DNA of 64,000 nucleotides. Origin: Acidobacteriota bacterium (GTDB taxonomy: Bacteria > Acidobacteriota > Holophagae > Holophagales > Holophagaceae). The position numbers were made by a program, and so were the translations under genes. The DNA lies in NCBI GenBank assembly GCA_021794095.1, contig JAJYRN010000013.1, forward strand, positions 9,465-73,464, read 5' to 3'. A model generated the notes under the pieces. That model was not told the origin of the DNA. It saw only the letters and a list, made by a program, of their open reading frames with translations, and did not search any database. How positions within the stretch are numbered: position 1 is the stretch's first letter; each line of letters begins with the position of its first letter. Below are positions 2,092 to 64,000 of this stretch, in pieces.

Positions 2092-3066
<975 letters not shown>

Positions 3067-44698: not shown

Positions 44699-44931
44699 AA
44701 TCAGTCCCACTGAGCTGCCTCCAGCCCGGGGAGCAGGGGGAGGTGGTGCAGGTGAAGGCACAGGGGACCATTCGTCAGCGTTTGCTGGAAATGGGCTTCA
44801 TCCGAGGGGCCCGCCTGCGCGTGGAGAAACTGGCCCCCCTGGGTGATCCCATGGAGCTTGTGATCAAGGGGTACCACCTGTCCCTTCGCCGGGAGGAGAG
44901 CGGTTGCATTCTGGTCCAGCGGGTGGCTTGA
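44686..44931 (+). CDS. feoA: Ferrous iron transport protein A
   Basis: RQRLLEMGF, APLGDPM, LSLRREE. Confidence 0.92.
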   Translation: MTHNQSVPLSCLQPGEQGEVVQVKAQGTIRQRLLEMGFIRGARLRVEKLAPLGDPMELVIKGYHLSLRREESGCILVQRVA

Positions 44932-47424: not shown

Positions 47425-50400
47425 CTACTTCAGTCCCAGGCTTGCTGCTTGCTGTTGGAGGCTTTTCCAGTGGTCCAGGGTGCCCTGGAGCAGGGCGTCC
47501 AGACGCTGGTACCCGGCCTTTGCATCGGGGGAAGGCTCCCCATCGGCGCCATCCACGGCGTGCAGAAGCTGGCCGAGGGCGCCCCCCAGGTAGCGGAAAT
47601 TCCCGGTGCTTGTGATGGGGACGGCCCACACATTGGCGGGGTTCGCCGTTTCCGCCAGCCCCATCAACGTGCTGAGCTTCTGGTCCAAGGTGCGGAGGGC
47701 TTCGCCCTGCGCGCCCTGCTGGGGCCTGGCGCGCAGGAGGCGGTGGAGCTTCCGGGCCGCGCCTTCCGCAGTGGCCAACTGGACCTGCAAGGCCTCGATG
47801 CGCGCGCCAAGCGCATCCTGGTGCAGGAAGGCTTCCGCCGGAAGATGCACGCGGGGATCCGGGACCACCTCCAGCGGCTGACGGAGGGTGTGCCCGTCCA
47901 CGGTCAGCGCCACGGTGTAGTGGCCCGGCGGCACCCAGCGGCCATCGGCATAGGCATTCCCGTGGGACAGCGCCGGGGGCAGCATCCGGTGCAGCGGCCA
48001 CACGAAGCGGTGCTGGCCGGGGGTGGTGGCCAGGGTGGAGGGCCGGGGGATCCATTCGGGGGCGGCGTGGGCGGTGGCGGGATCCGGGGCAGGAGCGCGG
48101 TCCGCGCTGGAGTAGCGACGTACCAGTTGCCCCTTGGCGTCGCGGATCTCCAGGGTGATCGGTCCCGTGGGGGTGGCCGCCAGCACGTAGTCAATCCAGG
48201 CGCCGAACGGCGGATTCGGGGCCTGGGGTTCTTCCTTGGTCAGGGGCGTGCCGGTGAAGGTGGCCGGCCGGAGCCGGAGGACGGTGGCGGGTTTCAGCAG
48301 CCGCGTCTGGAGGGGGCCAGGTTCCGCCTGGCGCAGGGGGGCTAGGCCATCGAGGATCCAGAAGCCCCGGCCGTGGGTGGCGATCACCAGGTCGTTCCCA
48401 TGCACCGTGAGATCCCGCACCGAGACCCAGGGCAGGTCCAGTTGCAGGGATTGCCACTGGTCGCCGGCGTCGAAGGACACGAAGATGCCCTGTTCCGTGG
48501 CGGCGTAGAGCAGGCCCCGGCGCGCGGGATCCTCGCGCACAGCGTTGAGGAAGGCGCCCTTGGGAAGGCCCGAGGTGATGGCCGTCCAGTGCTTCCCGCC
48601 ATCGCGGGTGCGGTAGAGGTGAGGCTGGCGGTCCTCGATCCGATGTCGGTCCACGGCCACATAGGCGGCGCCCGCGTCGAAGGGCGAGGCTTCGATGCCG
48701 GCGATCTTGGACCAGGGGCCGAGTTCCGGCGGCGTGACCGCCTCCCAGTGGGCGCCGCCATCCGGGGTGCGCCAGACGAGGCCGTCATCCGTGCCCACCC
48801 ACAGCAGCTTCCCGTCGAGGGGCGAGGGCGCGATGGCGTAGATGACGCCCCGGCGGGGATCGGCACCCGCATCGCAGGTCATGCCTGCGGCCTGCAGGGC
48901 CGGCGGCGCGCCGGGATCCGGCCGGGTGAGGTCCGGGCTGATCGCGTCCCAGTGCAGGCCGCCATCGGTGGTGCGGAACAGCCGCTGGTTGCCGAAATAG
49001 AGGGCCTTCGGGCCCCGCCGGGAGAAGGCCAGGGGCAGGGTCCAGGCGCGGCGGTAGAGGCCGGGCTTCGCGAGGGTGGGATCCACGGAGCGGGTCTGCT
49101 CAGTCGTGAGGTCAAGCCGGTCCACGGCGCCCCCGTAGATCACCTTCGGATTGTCGGGATCGGGCGCGATCATGCCGGATTCCCCCCCGGTGGTGAGTTC
49201 GTGGAACTGCTCCAGGCTGATGGTGCCGTGGAAGGTGGTGAGGCTGGGGAGGCCCACCGCGCCGGAATCCTGCTGGGCCCCGTAGACGTGGTAGGGGAAG
49301 CCCTGGTCTGTGGCCACGTGGTAGATCTGGGCCGTGGGCTGGTTCAGGCGGGAACTCCAGGTGCGTCCACCGTTCACGGTGACCTGGGCGCCCTGATCGG
49401 AGCCCACGATCTGCCGCCGGGGATCGGCGGGATCCACCCACAGCTCGTGGAAGTCGTCGCCCGTGAAGTCGCCGCTCTGGGCGACGAAGTGCCCTCCGCC
49501 ATCCTCCGAGCGCAGGAGGATGGTGTTCATCACCCAGATCCGGTTGGCATCCGCGGGATCCACCGTGATCCGGCCGAAGTACCAGCCCCGGGCCCAGATG
49601 CGGGGATCGGCGCTGGTGCGCGTCCAGTGGCCACCGGCATCCTCCGACCGGTAGAGGCCGCCCTCCGGCCCATCCACCAGGGCGTACACCCGGTGGGGAT
49701 CCGCATTGGACAACGCGAGTCCAATCCGGCCCGCGCTGGCGGGGAAGCCGCCGCCCGCGATGCGGCTCCAGTGGGTGCCGCCATCCACCGATTTCCAGAG
49801 GCCGGAACCCGGACCTTCCAGGGGCGGATAGATGCTCCAGGGGGTGCGCCGGGTCTGCCACAGCGACGCGTAGATCACTTCCGGATTCCCGGGTTCGAAG
49901 GCCAGGTCAATGGCGCCGGTGGCGGCATCGGGGCCCAGCACTTTGGTCCAGGTGCGTCCGCCGTCCTCCGTGCGGAATACGCCCCGCTCGGCGCTGGGCC
50001 CGTAAGGGTGGCCGAGGGCCGCCACGAAGACCCGGTCCGCGTTCCGGGGATCCACGAGGATCCGTCCGATCTGCTGGGTATCCGCCAGGCCGAGGTGGGT
50101 CCAGGTGCTTCCGCCATCCGTGGAGCGATACAGGCCATCGCCCTGGGTGATGTCCGAGCGCATGTCCGCTTCGCCGGTGCCCACGTAGATCACATCCGGG
50201 TTGGACGGCGCCACGGCCAGGGCGCCGATGGCCTGGGTGGGCTGGCCGTCGAAGCGCGGCTGCCAGGTGTGGCCCGCATCATCCGTCTCCCACACGCCCC
50301 CATCCACCGCACCGAACCAGAACCGTTTCGGATGGCCGGGCACACCGCTGACCGCCAGCACCCGCCCGCCCCGGAAGGGCCCGATCATCCGCCAATGGAG

Positions 50401-50484
50401 ATCCTGGAATTGCGCAGGAGCGACCTGACCGTGGGCCGCCAGGGTCGCCAGCATCAAGAAGACGGATGGCGCGTGGCGGAACAT
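47425..50484 (-). CDS. Secreted VPS10/BNR (Asp-box) repeat beta-propeller protein, putative glycosyl hydrolase
   Basis: Signal peptide; WRMIGPFRGGR; many S/T-x-D-G-G-x-x-W Asp boxes; 1019 aa. Confidence 0.88.
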   Translation of the reverse strand: MFRHAPSVFLMLATLAAHGQVAPAQFQDLHWRMIGPFRGGRVLAVSGVPGHPKRFWFGAVDGGVWETDDAGHTWQPRFDGQPTQAIGALAVAPSNPDVIYVGTGEADMRSDITQGDGLYRSTDGGSTWTHLGLADTQQIGRILVDPRNADRVFVAALGHPYGPSAERGVFRTEDGGRTWTKVLGPDAATGAIDLAFEPGNPEVIYASLWQTRRTPWSIYPPLEGPGSGLWKSVDGGTHWSRIAGGGFPASAGRIGLALSNADPHRVYALVDGPEGGLYRSEDAGGHWTRTSADPRIWARGWYFGRITVDPADANRIWVMNTILLRSEDGGGHFVAQSGDFTGDDFHELWVDPADPRRQIVGSDQGAQVTVNGGRTWSSRLNQPTAQIYHVATDQGFPYHVYGAQQDSGAVGLPSLTTFHGTISLEQFHELTTGGESGMIAPDPDNPKVIYGGAVDRLDLTTEQTRSVDPTLAKPGLYRRAWTLPLAFSRRGPKALYFGNQRLFRTTDGGLHWDAISPDLTRPDPGAPPALQAAGMTCDAGADPRRGVIYAIAPSPLDGKLLWVGTDDGLVWRTPDGGAHWEAVTPPELGPWSKIAGIEASPFDAGAAYVAVDRHRIEDRQPHLYRTRDGGKHWTAITSGLPKGAFLNAVREDPARRGLLYAATEQGIFVSFDAGDQWQSLQLDLPWVSVRDLTVHGNDLVIATHGRGFWILDGLAPLRQAEPGPLQTRLLKPATVLRLRPATFTGTPLTKEEPQAPNPPFGAWIDYVLAATPTGPITLEIRDAKGQLVRRYSSADRAPAPDPATAHAAPEWIPRPSTLATTPGQHRFVWPLHRMLPPALSHGNAYADGRWVPPGHYTVALTVDGHTLRQPLEVVPDPRVHLPAEAFLHQDALGARIEALQVQLATAEGAARKLHRLLRARPQQGAQGEALRTLDQKLSTLMGLAETANPANVWAVPITSTGNFRYLGGALGQLLHAVDGADGEPSPDAKAGYQRLDALLQGTLDHWKSLQQQAASLGLK

Positions 50485-50676
50485 GGATCCCCCTCAGCGC
50501 GGGCCAGACCCGCATCCGCAGATCATAGCCGAAAGGCATCGTGCTGCGAGGGTTGCCCGTACCCAGGGAGGTCTACACGGTCATGAGGTGCTCCCCGCAG
50601 GATGGCAGGCAAGCTCAGCTGCGGCCTACCCACATGAAAGGGAAAGGAACCGAGGCCATCCGATGCCGATCTCCAT

Positions 50677-50772
50677 GGGCTGGTAGCGGGTGAGGATTTT
50701 GCTGCCCCGCTCATAGCTTCCGCTCACCAACTGGAACAGGAGATGCACGGTCCTTCGCCTAGAGAGCGGGCG
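50677..50772 (-). mobile_element. Degraded IS21-family IstB fragment
   Basis: Manual translation PLSRRRTVHLLFQLVSGSYERGSKILT resembles the IstB motif LLFQLVSRRYERGSxILT; no intact ORF. Confidence 0.6.
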
Positions 50773-50789
50773 GCAGGCCTAGGGCTTGG

Positions 50790-51030
50790 ATGTTAATTGT
50801 TGTTAAGACTCCATGGATCGCATGAATAAAATAAAAATAATAACTTTAATCATTTTAATTTTTATATTAATTTAAATCCAAACAAAATCGAAAAAATCTT
50901 ATCGCGTTGCAAGGCATATAGGGCATTTTGAATATTGAAGAATCTCGTCTAGCCTGCAATATTCCGAACTTCATGGTTGTCTTTCCGAATCGGGACCTGG
51001 TCGGTCGGACATTTTGTTGTTTGGATGAGA
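50790..51030. promoter_or_regulatory. Strongly AT-rich upstream region of the giant gene
   Basis: Runs such as AATAAAATAAAAATAATAACTTTAATCATTTTAATTTTTATATTAATTTAAA in an otherwise very GC-rich window. Confidence 0.6.
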
Positions 51031-51034
51031 TTCC

Positions 51035-54000
51035 ATGCTCCATTATGCAAAACAACCCGTTTCCCGTGCCTTGACATTGACACTTTGTCTTTGGACTAGT
51101 TTGGGATTTGGTCGGACGGTTCGACTTAAACGCGGCCCACGGCCCGAAGGAACTTCTGCTGCAGGTGTGACTCCCCATGTGACGGTCGGGATGGCCTCTC
51201 TGCTTCGAGCGGGGGCGTTGGCTGTGACTTCTCTCGACCTGGTGGGGCTCGAACTCCGCCTGCCTTCGACTCCCATGAATCTGCCTCGGAATGCCCCCTT
51301 TTTCGTGCCCGTCCAGCTCGGGCTCCGGGGCCAGCCCGTGGGACAGGCCTCGAACCCTTACCCTGCCGATGCGGAGCTTCAGGGGACTTTGACCGGGCCC
51401 GGGCTCTCGGCCCCGGTAGCGCTGTCTGGCACGCTGGCATCGGGACTTTCCGTTCCCGGGTTGCCGGAGGCTGGCGATTACACGATCTCGGGTGTTCAGC
51501 TGGTCCACGATTCTCGGGTCCTTCTGAAGGCCCAGCAGAATGCCTTCAGCGTTCATTGCCTCGGGGATGTCCTGGTCACCAGCGTCTCCGCCTCGCCCAT
51601 GACGATGGATGAGATCAAGCAGGCCGGGATCCAGCTTGAACCGGGAGACTACACGGGCCGCCGGTTCGAGATGACCCTGTCCGTCGGCGGGAAGCAGGTG
51701 TCTCTCAACATTCCTGTGGCCATTCCGGTCTACAACGGTCTGGAAGATCCTCGCGGTTCAGTGGGACCCGTGGGGCTGAAGATCGGGAACATTCAGGGCG
51801 CCATTCCGAATGGCCTATCGGTGGTGCTGGCGGATATTGTGCCGGATAAGGATCCCTTCAGCCTCAGCCGTCCCTCGGTGTCCTTTGAAATGCGGAACAA
51901 CTTCAAGGCGCTGCTGGTGATTCCGGGGAGCATCGGGTACCTCAAGCAGATCTACAAAGTCAACGTGGCCGTGTTCGACGCGTTGGACCCCAGCTCTCCC
52001 TACCGGATCAGCCACCTTGCGGCCACTTGGCTTCCCCCCGCAGGGCTTGATGGCATGCCCGGCACACCGGACGACCCCCTCCTGGCCACGGGCGGGGAGA
52101 GCCTGGCCCAAGTCCTGGTCGGGCCGAAGGGGAATTCCACCCTGTCTGGCGGTCAGACGGCCATGGCCACCTTCGACCTTCTCGGCAACGCCGAAGGCAG
52201 CCATCCGCTCGACTTCAAGATCGTGGGCCAGTTCGAAGGAGGGGACCTGGATCAGCCGGTGGCCCTGACCGGGGTGGCCCACGGCAAGGTGCTGGTCCAG
52301 GACCCGAATTTCAACTTGATGCTGGTCCACCCGGATGTGGTGCGCCGGGGACAGACCTACACGCTGGAGGCCCACCTCACCAACACGTCCCAGACCCTGG
52401 CCAACGCCGTCAGCCTCACCATTGACAAGGCCCGGCTGGCAGGGACCCAGCTCATCGGGGATGCCACCCAGACCATTGACACCCTTCTGCCTGGCCAGAC
52501 CGTGGTGATGAAGTTCAGGCTCCAGGCCTTCATCAGCGGCCAGGTGACCAGCTCCTACCTCTACATTGATCCGGGCAACACCATCGGCTTCCAGCTCAGC
52601 ACGGGAATCGGGCCCAGGGATGTGTGCCTCAACCCAGATACCCTGTCCCTGCCCGACAGCCTGGTGGACCCCACGCGGGGCATTCCCAAGCCGCTCCAGG
52701 AAGCCATGCTGGCGCTGCTCAATGCAGGCTACGACGTAGCGACCTCCCAGCAAGCCCTGCCACCTGGGGTGCTGCCCATCTCCCGGGCCACCATCACCAC
52801 CACCATGGCCGAGTCGCTTTCACAGGAAGGGCTCTTCCTGGGCATGGGACTCGACAAGGCCCGGGTCTGGTGGGACCTGTGGACCCTGTTCACCCGGAAT
52901 CCAGATGCCGGGTTCGATCAGCTGATGCGGACCACCCAGGTGGGGGCCGACCTCCGGAACGCCTTTCTCTCAGCCTGGGCCTGGGCGAACGGAGCCAAGG
53001 GACCGGCGGTGCGTGCGAAGGATTTCGCGACGTTCAATTCCGGCCTATCGGACATGGCTCTGGTGGGGATCCAGGGGGCCGGACCGGGCCTCCAGATCGC
53101 CGCCTCGAACGGCCATGGGGGCATCTTGGAAATGGGGCTTCCCGAATCAGATCAGGCGCCTGTCCCGGTACCAGGCCTTGGGCTGCCAGATTCGGCCTGG
53201 GGGGCCTCGGGTGGACTTCAGCTGCTGCAGGTTCCAATGGGGCCCAAGGACACCGTTCGGCTGGCTGTGGCGAACCAGGGGCCGGAGACCCGGACCCTGA
53301 CCCTTGGTCTGGTCAATCCCCTGGCTGGAAGCGCCGTTCCCGTGTCGAACACCCTGACGGTAACCCTCGAAAAGGGGGAGTCCGCCATGCTCAAACTCGG
53401 GGCCACGCGAATCGTGAGTGCCGAGTTGACCTCATCCCAAGGGGATGCGCAAGGCCAGGTGCTGGCGCAGAACACCGAGGACGCGCCCGCCGAGCCCTTT
53501 CAGGTACTGGGGATCCACCGCTACGACCTCAGCGTGTCTGGGAGCGCGGATCCCTACGGCACTCAGGTCATGATCCTCTTCAACCGTCCGAACATGGCTC
53601 TGAACGTGCCGGATGGGGACGCGGGTTTCCAGACCGCTTCGGCCCTGGTCCAGATCGAGGCCAACCAGTTCTGGCGGAAGGTCATGGCTCCGAATCCTGA
53701 GACCGGTGTGGTGCCTCCCGCGCCCGCCGCGCTTCTCCAGGCCTTCCCCCGCGTGGTCTCCTGCTACCTGGAGAAGCCGGTGGGCCCCTACATCCATCGG
53801 AGCCTGACCCTCTCGTCCCAGTGGACTGATCAGGATGGCCACCCGATTCAGGGACCGTTGACCTGGGACATCCAGAGCGGGCTACTCCCCGGCGGAGCGG
53901 TCGTAAAGGGGCATTTCCGCCGGCTTGATGGCACCGGCGTGCCGGGGCACCTGACTTACTGGTACCAGCAGCGGGTCGACAACACCGCGGTTGACCTGGC

Positions 54001-57000
54001 TACGGGTTATTCCTTCGCCGATGAAATGATCGACTTCTACTACCCCTTGATCACGAACAACGTGGCCACCGAGGCGGATGGTTCCTTCCAGCTCGACTAC
54101 GTGCCAGCCCCCATCGGCGACTTCATCGGTCCCTTCGTGCTCCAGGGTGGGTTCCCCGAAGGGACAGCCTTCGCGGAGGCTTCGGTCCTCGGTAATGGCC
54201 AGACCATCCAGATGGACTTGGTCCTGGAAGGCAAAGGATCGGTGGATGGCACCGTGCTCGATGCCGAGGGGCAGCCCATCGAAGGTGCCCAGGTGCTGGC
54301 CATCCAGGAACAACAGAGTTCGGATTTTACCCGAGGCACGGGGGGCGGCCACTTCAGCGCGGGGGGCGTCACGGATGCCCAGGGCCACTACCACCTGGAA
54401 GGACTCAAGACCGGGGTCTTCAGCCTCCAGGTCCTCAAGGGCGACCTGGGTGCCGTGAGCGGCGGAGAGATCACCACGGATGGCCAGATGGTCAGCCTGA
54501 ACGTGGTGCTGCAGGGGAAGGTGGGTACCATCCGGGCGCGGGTGCTCGATCCCAAGGGGCTTCTGCGCAGGGATCAGACCGTGCGCCTCGGCATCCCTGG
54601 AGGGCTCGTCCGGAACGGTTCCTCGGCGGGAAGCTGGACTTACCCCCTCGAAGGCAAACCCGGCCCAGACGGATGGGTGACCTTCACCAAGGTTCCCGCA
54701 GGGGATGTGCAGCTCATTGCCCCGTATTCCGCACCTACCCAGGCGCCCGGCTGGCAGGGGTTCCTGAAGCCGGACCAGACCCTTCAGATCGAACTGAAGA
54801 TGGCGGATCCCACCCAACTCGGATCCGTCCAGGCCCTGGTGGTGGATGCCGGCGGGAGTCCGGTTCCAGGGGCTTTCCTGAAGTTCGACTCTGGCGCCAG
54901 CATGAATTTCGTGGCCCAGACGGGGGACGATGGGCTGACCCCGCCTGTCCCGGTCCTTTCGGGCCAGGCGGTCCAAGGCTTCGTCTACCACCCCCACTGG
55001 ACAGGCCTCACGGCCACCAACAGCGTGCAGGTCCAGGCCGGCGGGCACTACATCCTCAAGGCGGTCCTGCCTGCCCGGTGCGTCCTGACTGGCGCTGTGA
55101 TCCGCCCCGACGGCTCCCCCGTGGCGGGGGCCTACGTGGCCATTCCTCCGGTCTACAGCGACAACACCCGCAACCGTCTCGCCATCACGGATACCCACGG
55201 GGCCTACACGATCCCCAACGTGCCCGCGGGTGGGGCCTACCGGCTGGCGGCCGTGGGTCCTGACTTGCGGACGGCGGTGAACGTGCAGGTCCCCGTGGCG
55301 TTGTCAGACACCAGCTTGACCGTGAACCTCACCTTGCCGGAGGTGGCCCACAACACCCTGACGGGGACGGTGTACCAGCCGCTGTCTGGCGCAGGACAGC
55401 GGGTTCCCACCAACGCGACCCTCGGCGTCTATGGCCAGCTGCCCGATATCGCGGCATCGCAGGGAGGGAACTCCCGGTGGGGGCTGCCAGAGCAGGCTCT
55501 GGTCGGAGCCGTGAACGAGGACGATATGCCCCCGACGCGGGTGGGGCAGTTCGCCATCCCCAACCTGCCAGCAGGCCCCTACACCCTGAACGCCAGCAGC
55601 AGTCTGTTCCCGAGCCTGGTGATGATGGCCGGGGATTTCGGGGCGGACACCTCCGGTACCAAATCGCTGGACGTCTACCTCCACGACAACAATGTCGGGC
55701 TCGTGCAGGGCAGGGTGGCCCAGCCGGACGGCCAGACGCCCGTGGCGGCCGGGGCCCGGGTGATGGTCATGATCGGCGGGCATTCCTTGATCCAGGTGCT
55801 CACCCAGGAAGGGGGAACCTACGTGTTTCCCAGGGTCCTTCCGCCCAATGATTTTTACATGCTGCGTGTCGAGGACCCCCAGACCGGCGATATCACGGTG
55901 AAGCCCTTCTCCCTGAATGCGCGGGAAATCAAGACCCTTAATGTCCGGCTTTGGGGCTGGGGCGATCTCACGGTGAAGGTGCAGGACAGCCATGGGAATC
56001 CCCTGATTGGGGTGGGGGCCACAACCTGCGGCACAGTCACCCTTCAGCACAGCAAGTCCAACCTCGTCGGCCTCGCCGACATGCCCCTGCTGCAGCTGCC
56101 GGTCACGCCGGCCGATCAGGGAACCCTGGTCTTCCCGCATCTGCTGGAGGGGCCCATCACCATCCAGCTCAAGGACACTTCGGGCCTCTCCGGCGTGGCT
56201 TCGGCGGAGCTCCCGATCGGGGGTGGAAACCAGACCGTGGTGGTACGCCTCCAGCCCGTGGGGCGGATCCAGGGCACCCTGTTGCGGGCGGATGGAACAC
56301 CCGTGGCGGCGGGCCGGGTGGACGCCTATCAGGGGGGGCGCTGGTTGGGGACCTGCCCGACCTTCGTGCAGTTCCCCACCGATCCGAATCCGGTGCCGGG
56401 CCATTTCATGTTCGATCCCCTGCCCACCGGGCCCATCCGTCTGGAAGCCTGGGATCCGGATAGCCGGCAGACCGGGCAGGCCACCGTGAATGTGGAGGAC
56501 AATCAGACAGCCACGCTGACCATGAAGACCTTGGATACCGGGCAGGTGACCATCCAGGTACTCCAGGAAGGCAAGCCGGTCCTGCGCGCGGGCATCAACG
56601 TGACTTACCAGGGCGGCCCAGCCATGAGCTTCGCCACCCAGGCCACGGCCGACGAGAGTGGGTCTGCGACGTTCATCCTGCCGCCAGGGACCTACGCCGT
56701 GGAAGCAACGGATCCGGTCTCGCTGGCTTCCGGGAGCCTGACCTTCACGCGGGAGCTCAATCAGGCCCCCTGCTCCAAGAGCCTGGACCTCCAGCCGGTC
56801 CGTTCCGTCTTCGTGACGGTGCTGCCTCCTCCGCCCCTACCGGGGCAGACCCCCGTGGACCTGACGGGATGGCGTCTCCGTGCAGATGGATTGAATCGAA
56901 CCATCCTCCTGGATTCGAACGGCCAGGGGACCCTTCTTGACATGCCGGTAGGAACCTATGCCCTGGCGCTGTACGACGCGGCGAACCGCTTCCGGGGGCG

Positions 57001-60000
57001 GCAGCCCTTCCAAGTCATGGTCAATGGCGGCGCCCTCCAATCCGCCCGGTTCCAGGCCACGGCCATCGGGTCGGTGCTGGTGAAGGTGGTGGATGCGAAT
57101 GGCAAGCTCGTGGCGGGTGCGGAGGTCACCGGAGCAGGAGACTCCCTGTTCACGGATCTCTCAGGCCAGGCCCTCTTCCATGGCGTTCCGCAGGGAGTCG
57201 GGAGCCTGCGGGCCAGCCTGGGAACCCAACAGGTCTCAGGCCAATATGAAATCGCTCTCGAAAACCAGCAGGCTTCAGCCGCCCTCGCCTTCGCCCCGAC
57301 GGCCGCGCTCCATGGTGTGGTGCGGGATGCGCTGGGGCAGGTGGCATCCTATGTGGCTGTCTCCTGTGTGGGCCAGGCCGACACGGCCACCGATGCGCGG
57401 GGGGCCTTTGCCCTCCGGAGCTTGCCGATCGGGGTTCCCCTTACTCTGGTGGCCACAACCGCCCAGGGGCGGATCGGAACCTCGGCGACGGTGACCTTGG
57501 GACAGGGGGATGATCCCGAAGTGGACATCACCCTCCCGGCCGCCGGGACGCTGGCGGGCCAGGTGACGGATGCCCTGCGTCCGACGCTTCCCTCCCTGAG
57601 CATCCATGTCCTGAATGCCCAGGGTCAGGGCCTTGCCACCACCGGTTCAGACCAAACCGGGGCCTTCCAGATCCCGAACCTGCCGGCCGGACAGCCTCTG
57701 ACCGTGGTGGTTGTCTGGGATGACGGGCGGACCGAGGCCCTACGCCAGACCTTCACCATTCCGGGTGAAGGCCAGACCGTCAACCTGGTCTTGCCCCTGC
57801 CACCCTTCGTGAACCTCTCCGGGTGGACCCTGGATTCCGCCGGCGCCAACCAGCCCATGGACGTCCAGCTCATGGACGCTGCCGGATCCATCGTGATGGA
57901 CCGTGCGACCACCACGGTGGATATCCCCACCTTCTACTTCCGGTATCTGAAGGCAGGGGACACCTACCAGCTTCGGGGCTTCGATCCAGCCACGGGCGCG
58001 GGATGGGCCCGCCTGTCCCTCACGCCCTCCGGCAGCCAACTCCAGGAGACGGTGAACCTCCAACGCCCTGTACCGCATCCCCTGCTCCTTCAGGTGGTCT
58101 ACCCCGATGGAAGCGCGGTCCCCGGGGGCGGACATTACACCCTGACACTCCAGGGAAGCATCTCTGGGCACTGGGAAGGTGACCTCGGGTCCGACGGCTC
58201 GGCGACCGTGCCCGATGTCCTTCAGGGGCCGGCCACGATCGAAGTGAGTGGGGTTCCGGGCCAGCCGATGCTTTCCGTGAACGTGACCCTCGCTGCTCCC
58301 GGGGCTTCGCCGCAGTTGGTGCAGGTCCAAGCCTTCGGCGTGGGGCGGGCTCAGGTTGCCATTCGGACCGTGTCGGGTCGTCTGCTGACGGGCGGCGCCC
58401 TCGTGGCCCGATCTGCGGACGGAGGGGTGGTGCCAGCCATCCCCGAAGGAGATGGAGCCTATCTGCTCCAAGGCCTGCTGGTGGGACCTACCTATACCCT
58501 GGTCGGTTCTGGATTCGGCACCTTGGGGCAGGCCCCGGTCATTGCCCTGACTCACCACGGAGATGCCATCGCCGTGACCTACCCGGCACCCGATCAGGGC
58601 GACCTCCTGGGGAGCGTTAAGGATGCCAAGGGTCTTCCGGTGGCGGGAGCCCTGGTCTCCCTGAACGGCGGGCCGGGCCTGGCCTCAGACAACTCGGGCC
58701 AGTTCCGGTTCGACGGCATCCCCCTGGGACCGTTCAGTCTGGTCGCAACGATTCCTGGCCGGCTCGATCGCGCTGGATCCGACGGGAACCTCAGCCAGGA
58801 TGGCGAAGTCCAGACCCAAGATCTCACCCTCAAGGGGGTCGGATCCCTGAGCGTGACCGTGGTCACCATGGAGGGGACGCCCATGCCTGGACAGTCGGTG
58901 TCCATCCGGAATACTGCGCCGTACGCGGGGGGATTCACCCGGACCTCCGTGTCCGATTCCAATGGGGTGGCCACCTTCCCGGAGGTGCTGGAGGGCCCGA
59001 TCCAGGTCGCGGCAACCCTCCAGGGACAGGTCCGGACGGTGTCGGGGACGCTGGTGGCAGGAGGCAACCTCTCCCTGACCTTGACAGCCCGCGATACCAC
59101 CACGCTTTCGGGTCACATCCATCGCGCTTCCGGTCTGGCTTGGCCAGTCGGAGCGAAGGCCCTGATCGGTCCGTGGCAGGTCGCCCTTGCCACGGATGGC
59201 ACCCTGGCCGGATCGGCTCCATCGAAACCGATCGAGTACTCCGCCGGTTCCATCCCCGTCTCCGTGCTTCTGCCAAGCGGAAGCACGGTCGACATCGGAT
59301 CCCTCTCCCTCGTCAAGAACGCGCCAACGGTTCTGGATCTGGCCGCTCCTCCCTACGGAAGCGTCCAGGGCGTTCTCAGCGATGCCTCGGGGAAGCCCCT
59401 GCCCGGGGGGATAGTGACCTGCCGGGGCATCGTGTCCACCACGGGCCTTGATGGCTCGTACCTGCTGGATGGCCTGCCGATGGGATCCCTCGACCTGAAA
59501 GCCACGCTGGCCGGACGGCCGGAGTGGGCCGAAGGCCTGGCGACCCTGGCCCTGGATGGGGACCACAAGTCCATCGCTCTGCGCATGAAGGGGGTGGGCC
59601 AAGTCTCGGTGAAGGTGCTGGACGCGTCCGGCCAACCGATACCGAGTGTCCAGGTGTCGCTCCGCAACCTCAGCCCGTTTGCGCCCACGCAGCCCTGGAC
59701 CGCCATGACGGGTCCGGATGGGACTGCGCCCTTCAGCGGCATTGTCGAGGGCACCCTTCAAGCCAGTGCGGACATCCACGGGAGGACCTACACCCAGAGC
59801 GGCTCCCTGGCTCCGGGAGGGGCGGCGTCTCTCACGATCCAGGAGACGGTCTTCACCGTCTTCTCGGGTCGCGTGAAGCGTACGGATCCGAGCCTCTCTT
59901 GGCCGGTGGGAGCCCAGTTCCAGATCCTGAGCCAGACCTATCCCCTAGCCGCTGACGGCACGATCCAAGTTCCGACCCCCGCACCTCAGATCCAGTTCGT

Positions 60001-63000
60001 GACAGGGGCTGCTACCGGCCAGGTGCTGCTCCCGGATGGCACGGAACTCGACTGCGGATCCCTGACGCTGGTGAGGAACGGCGCGACCCTTGTGGCTCTG
60101 ACCGCCCCACCCTTCGGAACCCTGACCGTCACGGTGGAGGACTCGAAGCAGCTCCCGGTGGCCGGGGCCTGGGTCCGTGCAGGAAGGTTCCAAGGAATTT
60201 CCGGTTCGCAAGGGAAAGTCGAGGGCATCACTCTTCTGGGCGGAACCACCTCGGTCTCGGCCGGGAATGCCTCCCTGGTGGGGGGAACCAGCGTCCAGTT
60301 GAATTCGGACGGGCAAGCCGTTCCCTGCACTGTGGTCCTCCAATCGAATGCGGTCTCGCTGCCGGCCTACCTGAGCCTGGCGGGGCTGCACCGCCCCAAC
60401 GGCCTCAGGGTGGAAACCAGCGGCCACCAGCTTTTCGACTGGGGGGGCGGCAGCTCCGCGACCCTGAGCGTGGACGGAGCGTCTCCGGCCTGGCCCCAGC
60501 CTCCCGGGGGCGTGGCCCAGTGGGTGGAGAAGGATCGCCAGCTGAGCTACACCGCCAGCCAGGGACCCATCGAGGTCACCGTCCAGCGGAGCGTGGCCCC
60601 GCCGGGGATCGTGGTCCGAGAGGAAATCCGCCTCCGCAACACGGATACCCAGCCTCACCAGGTGGCCTTGCATCAGACGAGGTCATGGCCTGACTGGTAC
60701 TGGGCGGATGCTGGCGTGCGCGGGTACCCTTCGGACAATCCCCAGCCGGTGCTGGATGGGGCCACGCCGGATCTCGGACTGACCACCACGACGGGAGGGT
60801 CCTGGTTCTGGGGCGATGGGGCCGAGCGCCCCAGTTCCTGCCAGCTCGCCCAGGCCTACTCGACAGCATCCGTCAACCTGGACTGGCCCACCTGGAGCCT
60901 GGCCGCGGGCGCCTCCAAGGTGATTGCCTTGGCCTACGCGCCCTATGGCACCTCGGGCCCGAATCCCCTTCAACCCGGTGCCGCCGCTCGGCTGGCCTCT
61001 CGCCTCCAGGGCTCTGCTCCTGAATGGACCTATGGCCAGACCCTGGGCCCCTGGTCGAACTGGAAGGGAGAAGGGACGGACATCCCGACACCGCTGCCCC
61101 CCTGGAACCAGTCCGCCAAGCTGGACCTCCAGGACGCGTTGGGCCGCACCCCCATCAACCTGTCTCAGCTGACGTGGACCTATCAGCCCGATGACGCCCT
61201 GGCTCCCGTGGTGTCCGGGTGGGGCGCCGTGGCGCTGAGCAACCTTCCCGACGGAGGAACCCTGAAAGTCACGCTTCCCTCCCCGACGGGGACGCCCGTG
61301 GTGGAAGCGGTCCATGTGGACGTGCTTCGCGATGGGTCCATCCAGCTCCCCCAGGCCGCTTCGCTGTCCGTGACCGTCGTCGATGACCAGGGACAGCCCG
61401 TATCCGGGGCCGAGGTGGATGCAGGGGAGTCTGCCTGGTTTGCCACCGACGGCCAGGGACTCGTCGGGCCCCTCCTTCAGGCCCCTGGCGGCTATTCGAT
61501 CAAGGCCATGAGGCCGGGCAACAACACCTTTATTCACGTGACGGGCACGGGAACGTGCCTGGCGGGTCAGGACATGCCCGTCCGCCTGGTCCTTCCCGCC
61601 ACGGGCTCGATCCGCCTGACTTTGCTCGACGCCACGGGAACGGCCTATTCCGGGGGCTTCACCGCCTACCTTCAGACGCAGGACAGCGACGGCGGCAGCC
61701 GCAGCGTGGCCGCCTCCGGCAGCGGAGGCCAGGCCACGTGGCCGTACGTGCTGCCCGGCGACTGGACCCTCCAGTTGACGGATCCAAGGGGCAGCGGCCT
61801 GCCCATCCAGGTGCCCGTCCATGTGACTGCTGATGCCGAATCCGCCGTGGTGGCCACCCTGCCTTCCCTGGGGCAGGTCCAGGTCTCGGTCCTGACGCCC
61901 GCAGGCGTGGCGGCCCAGGCTGGAATCTCCGTCAGCCTGCAAGATGGCACCTGGACGAGCGGGTACACGAATGCATCTGGCCAGGTGCTCTTCTCTAACG
62001 TGGCCCCAGGGACGGTCACCCTTTCGGCTACCAATCCCGCTAATGGGCTTCCGGCCTATGCCTCCGCCCAGGTGGCCGCGAACCAGGCAACTGCGATGGT
62101 CCTGACCCTGTCTGGGGCGGGCACCCTCCGGTTCACCCTGACGAATGCCGGAGGGGCGCCCATCCCGGGCCGCTGGCTGTACGTGGCCGATGCGACGGGA
62201 CGCTACCGCTACAGTCAACAGACCAACACGTCAGGACAGGCCGTATTCACAAACTTGCCCACCGGCATGCCGCTCCTCCTCAAGGACAGTGCCAGCGCGT
62301 ATCCCTGGAGTCCGGCCCTTCCGGACCAAGCCTTCACATTCCATCATGACCAGGAATCGCAGGCTCTGTCCTACGCCCTTCCTGCGGGCGACTTGCAGGT
62401 GGTGGTCACCTGGGGCGGGGTTCCCGCTCCCAACCAGCAACTCCAGTTGGGGCTCCAGGGAAGCACCACGGATAACCGGATCTGCATCACGGATGCCCAG
62501 GGAAAAGTTCAGCTGCAGCAGATCCCCTCCCCAGCCATCCTGACCTATTCCATCCGAGGTCATGAGGGGCTCATCCCCATGAGTGGTGGAAGCCTGACCT
62601 TCCCCATTGATCTGCCGCCCCCAGCCTCTCTGACGGTCACCTTGACGCGGGCCGATGGGCAGGCGCCCCCGACGTCTGGCTCCGTCTACTATCAGGACTG
62701 GTCCTGGATGGCCACTCCGGGGGATGGCCAGACGGGCGCGCCTTCCCAAGTCAGCTCGGGACAGGCCACCTGGAACGTCCTGGACGTGGGAACGAGCCAG
62801 GACATCCAGGCCTCCCTTCCCATGAACTCCCATCTCTGGGGATGGGGATACGTTGCGAAGGGGCAGACAAGCAGCGAAACCTGGACCGCCAAGGGGTCCA
62901 TCACCCTCAAGGCGGGGACCAACAACCTGACCCTGACCCTTCCAGCGCGCGCCTCGGCCAGGATCCGGTTCGTGGACGCCTCCGGCGCCCCCATCACGGG

Positions 63001-64000
63001 GCCCATGAATGGCGATCTGATCACATTCCAGGTCATGGATTCGACGAATCCCGCCCTGGTGGGCCAAGCCACGAACACCTCCCTGTTCGACGGCATGAAC
63101 CTGCCCGAGGTGTTCACAGAAGGCGTGCACCACCTGAAGGCGAGTTCGGCCTTCTGGGGCGACCTCGGGACCGTGATCCTCACCGTCCGGCCACAAGATG
63201 ATGGGAAGACCCTGGATGTGCCGGTGACGCTCCCCTGGGTCCAGCAGGCCTACCGGTTCGCGGCCCTGGCGTCGGACGGGGCAACTCCGGTTCCGGCCGC
63301 CTCCTTCCTCATTGATACAGGGAAGGGAACGCTGCAGATCGGGAGCGGAACGCTTCCCCTCTCGGGCACCTTCTGGGCGCCTGGAGGCCAGCCGGTGACC
63401 GTTACGACTCAGTTCATGACGCCACTCACCGGTCGGTTCGTGACGGCCTCGCTGCCTGCCATAACCGGAAACGCGGCCTGGGATCTGAGCTTCCAGATGC
63501 CCCTGACGGTGCTCCGCGGGCGATTGAAGGATCTCGATGGAACCTGGTTGTCCAAGGTGGAGGGTTTCGCCTACCAGGATCCGCCGGATAAGATCCGGGT
63601 GCGCCTGCCCAGGGTTCCCATGTCGGATGCGAACTACGTGGTGCTGCTCGGGGAGGATCCCGGCCGGCAGGTGGATCTGACCTTGTTCGACGAGGATTCG
63701 GGGCTGGGCCAGAAGGCGTCGGCGGTCGTGCCATCCCTGGGAGCCGCCACCACGGTGGAGCCCTCAATGCCGGACTATGGCTGGCTGTCGGTGCCCACGT
63801 TCACGCTTCCGGATGGCAGCCATCCCCCAAGCGTGGACCTCGCCATCGCCTCCTCGGATCCCGGATTGGTGGACCCAAGCTACGCCCACTGGCGGACCGT
63901 CACGCCGCCCCAGGCGGCGCCTGGGTTCTCGCCCACGCTGTCGGGGAATGGCCCCCAGGTGAACCTGGATGGGTTCGGGGCCACCCTGGGTGGCGGTCTC
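51035..64000 (+). CDS. Giant secreted multi-domain beta-sandwich protein (carboxypeptidase-regulatory-like/Cna-B/Ig-like repeats), >4,322 aa, 3' end beyond the window
   Basis: ATG 51035 follows the in-frame TGA at 51026-51028; hydrophobic N-terminus ALTLTLCLWTSLGFG. Spot translations at 51.7, 55.3, 57.8, 58.6, 60.1, 62.2 and 64.0 kb are in frame. The ORF track lists no stop-terminated ORF in this frame. Repeated G-x-V-x-G-x-V-x-D-x-x-G-x-P motifs. Confidence 0.9.
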   Translation, partial: MLHYAKQPVSRALTLTLCLWTSLGFGRTVRLKRGPRPEGTSAAGVTPHVTVGMASLLRAGALAVTSLDLVGLELRLPSTPMNLPRNAPFFVPVQLGLRGQPVGQASNPYPADAELQGTLTGPGLSAPVALSGTLASGLSVPGLPEAGDYTISGVQLVHDSRVLLKAQQNAFSVHCLGDVLVTSVSASPMTMDEIKQAGIQLEPGDYTGRRFEMTLSVGGKQVSLNIPVAIPVYNGLEDPRGSVGPVGLKIGNIQGAIPNGLSVVLADIVPDKDPFSLSRPSVSFEMRNNFKALLVIPGSIGYLKQIYKVNVAVFDALDPSSPYRISHLAATWLPPAGLDGMPGTPDDPLLATGGESLAQVLVGPKGNSTLSGGQTAMATFDLLGNAEGSHPLDFKIVGQFEGGDLDQPVALTGVAHGKVLVQDPNFNLMLVHPDVVRRGQTYTLEAHLTNTSQTLANAVSLTIDKARLAGTQLIGDATQTIDTLLPGQTVVMKFRLQAFISGQVTSSYLYIDPGNTIGFQLSTGIGPRDVCLNPDTLSLPDSLVDPTRGIPKPLQEAMLALLNAGYDVATSQQALPPGVLPISRATITTTMAESLSQEGLFLGMGLDKARVWWDLWTLFTRNPDAGFDQLMRTTQVGADLRNAFLSAWAWANGAKGPAVRAKDFATFNSGLSDMALVGIQGAGPGLQIAASNGHGGILEMGLPESDQAPVPVPGLGLPDSAWGASGGLQLLQVPMGPKDTVRLAVANQGPETRTLTLGLVNPLAGSAVPVSNTLTVTLEKGESAMLKLGATRIVSAELTSSQGDAQGQVLAQNTEDAPAEPFQVLGIHRYDLSVSGSADPYGTQVMILFNRPNMALNVPDGDAGFQTASALVQIEANQFWRKVMAPNPETGVVPPAPAALLQAFPRVVSCYLEKPVGPYIHRSLTLSSQWTDQDGHPIQGPLTWDIQSGLLPGGAVVKGHFRRLDGTGVPGHLTYWYQQRVDNTAVDLATGYSFADEMIDFYYPLITNNVATEADGSFQLDYVPAPIGDFIGPFVLQGGFPEGTAFAEASVLGNGQTIQMDLVLEGKGSVDGTVLDAEGQPIEGAQVLAIQEQQSSDFTRGTGGGHFSAGGVTDAQGHYHLEGLKTGVFSLQVLKGDLGAVSGGEITTDGQMVSLNVVLQGKVGTIRARVLDPKGLLRRDQTVRLGIPGGLVRNGSSAGSWTYPLEGKPGPDGWVTFTKVPAGDVQLIAPYSAPTQAPGWQGFLKPDQTLQIELKMADPTQLGSVQALVVDAGGSPVPGAFLKFDSGASMNFVAQTGDDGLTPPVPVLSGQAVQGFVYHPHWTGLTATNSVQVQAGGHYILKAVLPARCVLTGAVIRPDGSPVAGAYVAIPPVYSDNTRNRLAITDTHGAYTIPNVPAGGAYRLAAVGPDLRTAVNVQVPVALSDTSLTVNLTLPEVAHNTLTGTVYQPLSGAGQRVPTNATLGVYGQLPDIAASQGGNSRWGLPEQALVGAVNEDDMPPTRVGQFAIPNLPAGPYTLNASSSLFPSLVMMAGDFGADTSGTKSLDVYLHDNNVGLVQGRVAQPDGQTPVAAGARVMVMIGGHSLIQVLTQEGGTYVFPRVLPPNDFYMLRVEDPQTGDITVKPFSLNAREIKTLNVRLWGWGDLTVKVQDSHGNPLIGVGATTCGTVTLQHSKSNLVGLADMPLLQLPVTPADQGTLVFPHLLEGPITIQLKDTSGLSGVASAELPIGGGNQTVVVRLQPVGRIQGTLLRADGTPVAAGRVDAYQGGRWLGTCPTFVQFPTDPNPVPGHFMFDPLPTGPIRLEAWDPDSRQTGQATVNVEDNQTATLTMKTLDTGQVTIQVLQEGKPVLRAGINVTYQGGPAMSFATQATADESGSATFILPPGTYAVEATDPVSLASGSLTFTRELNQAPCSKSLDLQPVRSVFVTVLPPPPLPGQTPVDLTGWRLRADGLNRTILLDSNGQGTLLDMPVGTYALALYDAANRFRGRQPFQVMVNGGALQSARFQATAIGSVLVKVVDANGKLVAGAEVTGAGDSLFTDLSGQALFHGVPQGVGSLRASLGTQQVSGQYEIALENQQASAALAFAPTAALHGVVRDALGQVASYVAVSCVGQADTATDARGAFALRSLPIGVPLTLVATTAQGRIGTSATVTLGQGDDPEVDITLPAAGTLAGQVTDALRPTLPSLSIHVLNAQGQGLATTGSDQTGAFQIPNLPAGQPLTVVVVWDDGRTEALRQTFTIPGEGQTVNLVLPLPPFVNLSGWTLDSAGANQPMDVQLMDAAGSIVMDRATTTVDIPTFYFRYLKAGDTYQLRGFDPATGAGWARLSLTPSGSQLQETVNLQRPVPHPLLLQVVYPDGSAVPGGGHYTLTLQGSISGHWEGDLGSDGSATVPDVLQGPATIEVSGVPGQPMLSVNVTLAAPGASPQLVQVQAFGVGRAQVAIRTVSGRLLTGGALVARSADGGVVPAIPEGDGAYLLQGLLVGPTYTLVGSGFGTLGQAPVIALTHHGDAIAVTYPAPDQGDLLGSVKDAKGLPVAGALVSLNGGPGLASDNSGQFRFDGIPLGPFSLVATIPGRLDRAGSDGNLSQDGEVQTQDLTLKGVGSLSVTVVTMEGTPMPGQSVSIRNTAPYAGGFTRTSVSDSNGVATFPEVLEGPIQVAATLQGQVRTVSGTLVAGGNLSLTLTARDTTTLSGHIHRASGLAWPVGAKALIGPWQVALATDGTLAGSAPSKPIEYSAGSIPVSVLLPSGSTVDIGSLSLVKNAPTVLDLAAPPYGSVQGVLSDASGKPLPGGIVTCRGIVSTTGLDGSYLLDGLPMGSLDLKATLAGRPEWAEGLATLALDGDHKSIALRMKGVGQVSVKVLDASGQPIPSVQVSLRNLSPFAPTQPWTAMTGPDGTAPFSGIVEGTLQASADIHGRTYTQSGSLAPGGAASLTIQETVFTVFSGRVKRTDPSLSWPVGAQFQILSQTYPLAADGTIQVPTPAPQIQFVTGAATGQVLLPDGTELDCGSLTLVRNGATLVALTAPPFGTLTVTVEDSKQLPVAGAWVRAGRFQGISGSQGKVEGITLLGGTTSVSAGNASLVGGTSVQLNSDGQAVPCTVVLQSNAVSLPAYLSLAGLHRPNGLRVETSGHQLFDWGGGSSATLSVDGASPAWPQPPGGVAQWVEKDRQLSYTASQGPIEVTVQRSVAPPGIVVREEIRLRNTDTQPHQVALHQTRSWPDWYWADAGVRGYPSDNPQPVLDGATPDLGLTTTTGGSWFWGDGAERPSSCQLAQAYSTASVNLDWPTWSLAAGASKVIALAYAPYGTSGPNPLQPGAAARLASRLQGSAPEWTYGQTLGPWSNWKGEGTDIPTPLPPWNQSAKLDLQDALGRTPINLSQLTWTYQPDDALAPVVSGWGAVALSNLPDGGTLKVTLPSPTGTPVVEAVHVDVLRDGSIQLPQAASLSVTVVDDQGQPVSGAEVDAGESAWFATDGQGLVGPLLQAPGGYSIKAMRPGNNTFIHVTGTGTCLAGQDMPVRLVLPATGSIRLTLLDATGTAYSGGFTAYLQTQDSDGGSRSVAASGSGGQATWPYVLPGDWTLQLTDPRGSGLPIQVPVHVTADAESAVVATLPSLGQVQVSVLTPAGVAAQAGISVSLQDGTWTSGYTNASGQVLFSNVAPGTVTLSATNPANGLPAYASAQVAANQATAMVLTLSGAGTLRFTLTNAGGAPIPGRWLYVADATGRYRYSQQTNTSGQAVFTNLPTGMPLLLKDSASAYPWSPALPDQAFTFHHDQESQALSYALPAGDLQVVVTWGGVPAPNQQLQLGLQGSTTDNRICITDAQGKVQLQQIPSPAILTYSIRGHEGLIPMSGGSLTFPIDLPPPASLTVTLTRADGQAPPTSGSVYYQDWSWMATPGDGQTGAPSQVSSGQATWNVLDVGTSQDIQASLPMNSHLWGWGYVAKGQTSSETWTAKGSITLKAGTNNLTLTLPARASARIRFVDASGAPITGPMNGDLITFQVMDSTNPALVGQATNTSLFDGMNLPEVFTEGVHHLKASSAFWGDLGTVILTVRPQDDGKTLDVPVTLPWVQQAYRFAALASDGATPVPAASFLIDTGKGTLQIGSGTLPLSGTFWAPGGQPVTVTTQFMTPLTGRFVTASLPAITGNAAWDLSFQMPLTVLRGRLKDLDGTWLSKVEGFAYQDPPDKIRVRLPRVPMSDANYVVLLGEDPGRQVDLTLFDEDSGLGQKASAVVPSLGAATTVEPSMPDYGWLSVPTFTLPDGSHPPSVDLAIASSDPGLVDPSYAHWRTVTPPQAAPGFSPTLSGNGPQVNLDGFGATLGGGL

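Follow-up and report, generated by a model that had tools for sequence, protein, structure and literature searches.

A 4,496-residue exported protein from an Acidobacteriota genome is the probable fibre partner of a giant polymorphic toxin

We analysed a 64,000-nucleotide (nt) stretch of the genome of an Acidobacteriota bacterium of the family Holophagaceae (GenBank assembly GCA_021794095.1, contig JAJYRN010000013.1, hereafter C11, positions 9465-73464; this whole stretch is called the window), the last 13 kb of which belong to a single gene (giant gene 1) encoding a protein of 4,496 amino acids (aa; giant 1). Judged from its sequence and gene neighbourhood, giant 1 is a conserved non-toxic companion of a polymorphic-toxin giant. 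Its family nearly always adjoins a giant with swappable toxin ends, which makes it probable that giant 1 forms one half, the fibre or adhesin, of an undescribed two-giant weapon of bacteria, and we assign a probability of roughly 0.55 to the reading that it serves as the non-toxic fibre/adhesin partner in a Sec-dependent two-giant antagonism module. The family is defined by an unnamed N-terminal module of ~950 aa (the N-module), which marks hundreds of giant exported fibre proteins that are nearly always encoded beside a giant polymorphic toxin. Acidobacteriota are among the most abundant bacteria of soils and sediments, and little is known of how they compete.

A sequence-only reading of the window had proposed a giant secreted modular protein at this place, in a frame (+2) staying open to the window end. 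The listing of open-ended open reading frames (ORFs) contains it as one ORF of 4,322 aa, and the full translation that had been suggested as a check meets no in-frame stop until C11:73989 (window-equivalent 64525), 525 nt past the window end. As the frame continues for 174 codons beyond the window before this stop, the complete gene (C11:60499-73989) encodes 4,496 aa. The assembly (2.99 Mb, 67% GC, 99% complete) is probably a metagenome-assembled genome (MAG). The GC content of giant gene 1 is 0.80 at third and 0.51 at second codon positions, a bias that is shared by other genes of the contig and typical of coding sequence at 67% genomic GC. Positions 50500-64000 are covered by Logan contigs (four runs, two studies) with 0-1 differences and zero indels, indicating that the long frame is real and not an assembly artefact, and metagenomes from mine tailings, mine drainage, soil and hot springs contain the locus. 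In run X1, one Logan contig connects position 54856 with 55234, with 377 nt missing and only 21 nt on the shorter side; most likely a repeat or foreign sequence caused this join, and it is no true deletion variant.

The signal-like N-terminus noticed from the sequence alone corresponds to a Sec-type signal peptide (MLHYAKQPVSRALTLTLCLWTSLGFG; Table 1), and the signal peptides of homologues directly precede the conserved LRxGALA start of the N-module. The N-module consists of several beta-sandwiches and a helical bundle, and its conservation is detectable down to ~25% identity. The invariant columns are chiefly Gly and Pro, together with the motif LLVIPGSIGYLKQ, which lies in the N-terminal region that the sequence-only reading had singled out as distinctive; the alignment contains no conserved His/Cys/Ser/Asp/Lys set hinting at catalysis, and the N-module finds no match in Pfam, NCBIfam or PDB sequences. 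An AlphaFold2 (AF2) model built from a 14-sequence alignment has a predicted local distance difference test score (pLDDT) of 69.9, with the stretch 202-303 poorly predicted. It places helices at nt 52655-53053, where a helical segment had been read at ~52.7-53.0 kb, and beta strands in the Ig-like VMILFNRP domain, a conserved domain with invariant G and F.

The rest of the protein is dominated by carboxypeptidase-regulatory-like (CarboxypepD_reg-like) sandwiches, which the sequence-only reading had put at well over a dozen. A hidden Markov model (HMM) iterated on giant 1 itself recognises 27 of them in residues 1070-3952, and the protein belongs to PF13620 at 304 bits (cut-off 32.3) in 10 stretches, with Pfam SpaA and SdrD_B matches as well. 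In addition to its recognised copies, the first array contains three divergent sandwiches, which appear as ~90-residue gaps of the HMM (residues 2254-2349, 2686-2776 and 2938-3029) and are kept in homologues. The array also includes a tandem duplication of a three-domain unit; the divergent third domain of this unit matches two collinear places in every close homologue, so that all of them carry the same duplication. The beta-rich domain of a different kind, recognised earlier at 60.3-61.1 kb, proves to be a 258-aa insert without a Pfam match, and is followed by a second, shorter array and a C-terminal region, conserved among close relatives over its first ~335 aa and variable over the remaining ~160 aa. 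A second AF2 model, covering residues 3096-4295, is all-beta (pLDDT 72.6), with moderate confidence for the insert (beta-rich with one helix, pLDDT ~55-80), good confidence for the C-terminal part and no membrane barrel.

No catalytic domain of Pfam or NCBIfam is present in giant 1, in agreement with the absence of a catalytic motif in the sequence-only reading, and domain searches of short and long relatives likewise return beta-sandwich and lectin-type domains only. All structural points of the sequence-only reading were borne out at the positions it gave. When the N-module, insert and C-terminus were searched against Pfam, NCBIfam and PDB sequences, the sole match was a spurious one to a mitochondrial RNA polymerase (E 0.36). 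Pfam and NCBIfam recognise no domain, sorting signal or toxin domain in residues 3953-4496, the Pfam search finds no pre-toxin domain (PT-HINT, RHS or similar) anywhere in giant 1, and the next gene downstream encodes an OmpA-family protein, not an immunity protein. The 15 Cys of giant 1 and a Lys content of 1.8% complete the picture of its composition. Isopeptide-stabilised repeats of the CnaB/SpaA pilin type were considered and rejected, because V, D, G, P, T, L and A are the only residues conserved in the 27-repeat consensus, which is without a conserved Lys or Asn.

A word-indexed search for relatives of giant 1 retrieved 44 clusters of 2,900-5,600 aa (72-25% identity), annotated as hypothetical or by their repeats only, from Holophagaceae, other Acidobacteria and one Caldilineaceae MAG (Chloroflexota). 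Searched against 1.84 billion representative proteins, a profile of the N-module gave 1,938 matches at E<=1e-3, 1,361 at E<=1e-10 and 804 at E<=1e-30, so that the family comprises at least 804 clusters (at 50% identity); the module is N-terminal in every listed match, in proteins of up to 6,685 aa. A motif scan with a trimmed 8-sequence alignment found 295 relatives in species-representative genomes, mostly of Acidobacteriota (Holophagae, Vicinamibacteria, Thermoanaerobaculia and Terriglobia), with scattered MAGs under the labels Desulfuromonadales, Nitrospirota, Binatia, among others. These relatives include N-module giants of two cultured strains, Geothrix fermentans DSM 14018 and Holophaga foetida DSM 6591. 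Of 301 genomes sampled from the phylum, 37 (about 12%) have the N-module; among the 13 of the same genus there are only 2 with it, the source genome and G. fermentans, which makes giant 1 an accessory gene. Giant 1 displays all the features by which we recognise the family, namely an N-terminal module right after the signal peptide, the motif IPGx[IV]G[YF]L[KHN]Q and an adjoining giant on the same strand. Several distant relatives end in three Laminin_G_3 domains or in F5/8 type C (LamG/discoidin lectin) domains, suggesting a binding function at the C-terminal end.

A second giant on the same strand adjoins the giant-1 homologue in 22 of the 23 decidable loci, with partners of 2,100 to >6,600 aa where complete. 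The pairs span classes and phyla, and their reading frames often overlap or nearly touch; in a few loci the partner lies upstream, or 1-3 small genes stand in between. The C-termini of the partners carry diverse domains (Table 1), and in the loci sampled it was these partners, not the N-module proteins, that bore the RHS and toxin parts. Their centres are conserved, over ~2,500 residues between the source genome and G150, and at 36-41% identity in G. fermentans and G090 over the ~1,600 residues searched, while the ends differ, indicating that the partner is a giant polymorphic toxin. The C-terminus of the G150 partner has no match in Pfam or PDB sequences, and a by-eye reading of it as a lytic transglycosylase, which these searches did not support, was dropped. 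The DUF900 match in G. fermentans (locus L134, a 12,736-bp contig, 308-1810) covers profile positions 6-105 of 232 only and ends just past an AHSMGN motif, in a part of lower GC (0.50); truncation or a frameshift may have affected this toxin end. In one relative the giant-1 homologue is immediately preceded by a LytTR-type two-component system (L105, 7857-9675), and in another the toxin giant is immediately followed by an IS110-family transposase (L131, 1629-3113).

In the source genome, giant gene 1 is followed after a gap of 54 nt by the OmpA-family gene, the stop of which overlaps the start of giant gene 2 by 4 nt, and a search for terminator-like sites between the three genes found none. 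The OmpA-family protein comprises a signal peptide, a beta-rich barrel-like N-domain, a Pro-rich linker and an OmpA_C domain; its N-domain terminates in a beta-signal-like ...GVTVAVGWRF. Giant 2 has a lipoprotein-like leader, 12 Glucodextran_B repeats, a long central region and a C-terminal VanY/M15 peptidoglycan peptidase domain (PF02557), which scores 25.8 bits in the whole protein and 32.3 bits in the last 199 aa (cut-off 25). A zinc-ligand pattern (SxHxxGxAxD / H) can be read by eye in SGFRSRSYQ, HSTGKCVD and VHY, and the VanY-like end has no match among PDB sequences. The GC content falls from ~0.66 to ~0.30 exactly at the start of the VanY domain and remains low through the two following ORFs. 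Because the GC break coincides with the enzymatic domain and small secreted ORFs come next, the end of giant 2 and these ORFs resemble a polymorphic toxin cassette with candidate periplasmic immunity. The ~30% GC cassette (C11:~84600-86700), made up of the VanY end and the two orphan secreted ORFs, evidently came from a source of low GC content, by acquisition or exchange. Between the two ORFs lies a GC-rich piece of 95 bp (C11:85731-85825), of which the start of contig C18 holds a 92% identical copy. The final ~125 bp of C11 (86964-87088) recur 100% identical at no fewer than six contig ends (C10, the C11 start, C13, C21, C22 and C26), and the right border of the island is hidden because C11 ends in this dispersed repeat, which breaks the assembly.

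The sequence-only reading had expected effector, anchor and secretion genes beyond the window. A toxin-ended giant and a candidate anchor of the OmpA family are indeed encoded there, whereas no dedicated secretion genes were found adjoining giant gene 1. Its proposal that giant 1 is an adhesin, scaffold or toxin-delivery stalk draws support from the downstream DNA and from the pairing in 22 of 23 loci.

That single giant sandwich-repeat proteins can form long surface fibres is known from GhpA and GhlA, which are analogues and not relatives of giant 1. GhpA of Aureispira sp. CCB-QB1 is a 5,898-aa substrate of Sec and T9SS (secretion system of type IX) that forms a 240-nm heptameric fibre catching prey, and the other products of its cluster include, as anchors, a PorP-like barrel of the outer membrane and a basal body resembling OmpA and PorE (bioRxiv 10.1101/2024.01.29.577165). 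The GhpA-like GhlA of Litorilinea aerophila (Chloroflexota) is a DUF11 giant of 6,596 aa that forms 180-nm hooks (bioRxiv 10.1101/2025.08.19.671072). Like these proteins, whose 180-240-nm fibres catch cells, giant 1 is a Sec-exported giant of tandem beta-sandwiches. Its operon likewise holds an OmpA-family gene, a parallel by analogy; of anchors like PorP and PorE, only this neighbour was seen. Unlike GhpA, giant 1 is without a T9SS C-terminal domain, shares no sequence homology with it, has repeats of the CarboxypepD_reg/transthyretin-like rather than the Ig-like or DUF11 type, and carries an N-module unrelated to the GhpA hook. Moreover, GhpA cooperates with the type VI secretion system (T6SS), whereas the giant-1 family is paired with a giant polymorphic toxin.

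In structural comparison with Foldseek, the fold resembles that of extended fibres. For the second model (the C-terminal ~1,200 residues), the best matches are the neck and base of GhpA (9flp, E 2.5e-15; also 9fly), and further matches include the B. anthracis TIE protein, Gram-positive pilins and RTX-adhesin extenders (among them 4p99, 6xi3 and SdrD). The N-module matches multi-sandwich proteins only (MG/Ig arrays), comprising A2M/TEP/C3/CD109, C-terminal barrels of transglutaminases and surface-layer (S-layer) proteins, with TM-scores <=0.15. Giant 1 also resembles the giant adhesins (RTX MpIBP/LapA, SprB, CnaB/SpaA pilins) in being a beads-on-a-string extender with ligand-binding domains towards one end, but differs from them in having no RTX or type I secretion signal, T9SS C-terminal domain, LPXTG or isopeptide pattern, and its N-module is unique to the giant-1 family.

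We picture giant 1 as a Sec-exported, non-enzymatic fibre of about 40 beta-sandwich beads, which would extend to a length of the order of 150-180 nm if scaled from GhpA. The N-module would most likely be the assembly or docking end, the sandwich array a spacer, and the 258-aa insert together with the C-terminal domains a variable ligand-binding end. The variable lectin tips suggest that the C-terminus of giant 1 is distal, although in GhpA the distal hook is formed by the N-terminal ~1,400 residues. Giant 1 would be co-made from one operon with the toxin giant and, in this genome, with an OmpA-type outer-membrane, peptidoglycan-binding protein that may, by analogy with GhpB/C, be its envelope anchor. 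The fibre would stand at the surface of the cell, perhaps with the OmpA-like protein as its holder, bind neighbouring cells and, with the toxin giant, carry the toxin to the envelope of a competitor or prey. Observed in the sequences are the gene and its domain architecture, the family, the synteny, the toxin-like ends of the partners and the low-GC cassette; surface display, the anchored end, the interaction between the giants and the antagonism itself are what we infer from the genome.

Several observations weigh against such a module. Pfam and NCBIfam detect no T9SS C-terminal domain, two-partner secretion (TPS) domain, RTX or autotransporter signal in giant 1, and no route across the outer membrane was identified; the C-terminal signals that the sequence-only reading had suggested (T9SS, autotransporter, RHS in cis) are missing. 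None of the RNA-seq runs sought for the locus contains it. Among the loci examined, the OmpA-family gene sits between the giants in the source genome only, and 20 other Geothrix genomes contain no full-length orthologue of its product. The VanY match on the whole of giant 2 is barely over the Pfam cut-off, and the candidate immunity ORFs are orphans and mutually non-paralogous, a search with the first of them returning no homologue. The TM-scores of all fold matches are very low (<=0.2), because the repeated sandwich fold is the sole shared feature. Finally, one relative, G056, has no adjoining giant, and the partner giants have no common N-terminal docking domain, only shared Glucodextran_B repeats; since family-wide conservation of these N-termini is lacking, no docking piece common to them is apparent.

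The last two points fit better with a giant 1 that acts alone, as an adhesin, biofilm-matrix or S-layer-like protein binding surfaces, minerals or polysaccharides, with the toxin giant as an independent cargo of the same accessory island. Giant 1 has only structural and lectin-type domains, and its fold matches adhesin extenders and the S-layer proteins SbsB/SbsC and SlaA/B, which are among the structural matches. However, if the two giants were uncoupled, it would be hard to see why their genes adjoin on one strand in 22 of 23 loci from different classes and phyla, often with frames that overlap or nearly touch, and the partner varies while the N-module of giant 1 is conserved. We therefore regard independent action as rather unlikely, and favour the paired fibre and toxin.

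Polymorphic toxins, as presented in the portion of Zhang, Aravind et al. 2012 (PMC3482391) drawn on here, combine Sec ('T2SS-type') leaders, PT-HINT/RHS pre-toxin parts and C-terminal toxin cassettes. Giant 2 conforms to this scheme in its signal peptide, repeat filament, variable toxin end, compositional break and small downstream ORFs, whereas toxin, pre-toxin and immunity domains are absent from giant 1. The trafficking modes in that portion of the source do not include a conserved non-toxic partner of equally giant size, nor did our literature searches return one. CdiA-CdiB likewise joins two genes, one for a conserved partner and the other for a giant filamentous protein whose C-terminal toxin is polymorphic, with an immunity gene downstream. 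Unlike CdiA-CdiB, giant 1, giant 2 and the OmpA-like protein contain no TPS (Haemagg_act) domain, FHA repeats or Omp85/POTRA transporter in Pfam, and the conserved partner is a 4,496-aa soluble fibre instead of a 16-stranded barrel.

The likeness raises the question of whether giant 1 might be an export or translocation helper of the toxin giant, a functional analogue of TpsB/CdiB for which adhesion would be secondary. Giant 1 is the conserved partner of a variable toxin and the first gene of the operon, and its invariant N-module has no assigned role; yet no membrane beta-barrel, POTRA or transmembrane segment is predicted, both AF2 models are soluble sandwich arrays, and the family extends to a Caldilineaceae MAG of the Chloroflexota, a phylum increasingly considered monoderm (bioRxiv 10.1101/2025.08.19.671072), so that we judge this role to be quite improbable. 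A periplasmic alpha-2-macroglobulin (A2M)-like protease trap or envelope protector, brought to mind by the A2M, TEP, C3 and CD109 matches of the N-module and by faint Pfam MG4 and bMG3 matches, is rejected as very improbable, as both the thioester motif and the thioester domain are absent (no CxEQ by eye at Cys 531 and 910, the only Cys in or near the helical part of the N-module, and a helical part of ~130 aa against a thioester domain of ~300 aa), no A2M-family Pfam domain reaches threshold, TM-scores are <=0.13, and the 27 transthyretin-like sandwiches and the toxin partner would be left unexplained.

Table 1 Features of giant 1, its operon and the partner giants of related loci. Positions are those of the window unless preceded by C11; for the latter, window-equivalents are given in parentheses.
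Feature	Position	Strand	Basis or remarks
Giant gene 1, in-window part	51035..64000	+	Open-ended ORF listing: 4,322 aa, stop-free
Sec-type signal peptide, residues 1-26	51035..51112	+	By eye; homologues also have signal peptides
N-module (~950 aa), residues ~57-1010	51203..54064	+	Alignment and AF2; several beta-sandwiches and helical bundle
Most conserved motif LLVIPGSIGYLKQ, residues 293-305	51911..51949	+	Invariant V/P/G/L/Q columns; family pattern IPGx[IV]G[YF]L[KHN]Q
Helical bundle within N-module (~130 residues), residues 541-673	52655..53053	+	AF2 helices, model positions 487-619, pLDDT ~75-88
Conserved Ig-like 'YGTQVMILFNRP' domain, residues ~824-945	53504..53869	+	Invariant G788/F795 (model numbering); AF2 beta strands
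First CarboxypepD_reg-like sandwich array, residues 1070-3102	54242..60340	+	PF13620; iterated HMM; 20 recognised copies and 3 divergent
Tandem duplication of three-domain unit (sandwich, sandwich, divergent sandwich), residues 2524-2776 and 2777-3029	58604..60121	+	Homologue comparison
258-aa beta-rich insert, residues 3103-3360	60341..61114	+	No Pfam match; conserved in 6 close homologues
Second array, 7 CarboxypepD_reg-like sandwiches, residues 3361-3952	61115..62890	+	Iterated HMM; AF2
C-terminal region, residues 3953-4496, more sandwich-like domains	62891..64000	+	AF2 all-beta, pLDDT ~80; continues to window-equivalent 64522
AT-rich upstream region (~25% GC, ~245 bp), probable promoter/regulatory region of operon	50790..51034	+	Sequence read; genome 67% GC
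OmpA-family gene, 435 aa	C11:74044-75351 (64580-65887)	same strand	OmpA_C, Pfam 56.6 bits
Giant gene 2, 3,294 aa	C11:75348-85232 (65884-75768)	same strand	VanY/M15 end at residues 3160-3263
AT-rich ORF 1, 158 aa	C11:85244-85720 (75780-76256)		Signal peptide; downstream of giant 2
AT-rich ORF 2, 153 aa	C11:85988-86449 (76524-76985)		Signal peptide; downstream of giant 2
Partner C-terminus, source genome			VanY
Partner C-terminus, G. fermentans			DUF900 alpha/beta-hydrolase, possibly truncated
Partner C-terminus, G089			PT-HINT and Tox-GHH
Partner C-terminus, G051			RHS and PT-HINT
Partner C-terminus, G017			RHS repeats
Partner C-terminus, G278			Phosphodiest (type I phosphodiesterase)

Upstream of giant gene 1, the AT-rich region contains one sigma-70-like promoter match (50803-50832), a count not above chance expectation, and GC content goes down to 0.60 across positions 50001-52000. 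The first ~100 nt of the gene, encoding the signal-peptide part, are likewise of lower GC, and the 50790-51140 stretch as a whole may have a regulatory role or represent a 5' end that has undergone recombination. The upstream neighbours, identified by eye, are a FeoB-like gene (44904-47105, + strand) and a gene for a 1,019-aa BNR/sortilin-type repeat protein (47425-50484, - strand); at the related locus L104, a Sortilin/BNR gene follows the giant pair.

Both parts described here belong to known kinds, one being a giant fibre of sandwich repeats and the other a polymorphic toxin. In our literature searches we found neither the ~950-aa module nor the two-giant arrangement described; a search on Geothrix giant proteins returned nothing, and an Omnitrophota giant-gene preprint concerns different proteins. 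It is conceivable, and we put this forward tentatively as a wider claim that may well not hold, that N-module giants and their toxin-ended partners constitute an undescribed class of contact-dependent antagonism or predation apparatus, Sec-dependent and independent of the type V, VI, VII and IX secretion systems, widespread in Acidobacteriota and scattered in other phyla. In such an apparatus, the ~150-nm giant-1 fibre would capture or dock on cells, and the second giant fibre would present exchangeable toxins (a peptidoglycan hydrolase, a lipase-like hydrolase, a phosphodiesterase, an HNH nuclease or an RHS cage).

If the two giants do act together, they would represent a new way of delivering toxins to neighbouring cells without recourse to a known specialised secretion system. 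Their joint action would also assign a function to part of the large class of excreted proteins of high molecular weight, of which the earliest genome papers on Acidobacteria reportedly noted many. As the pair is also present in the cultured type strain Geothrix fermentans DSM 14018, direct testing would be possible.

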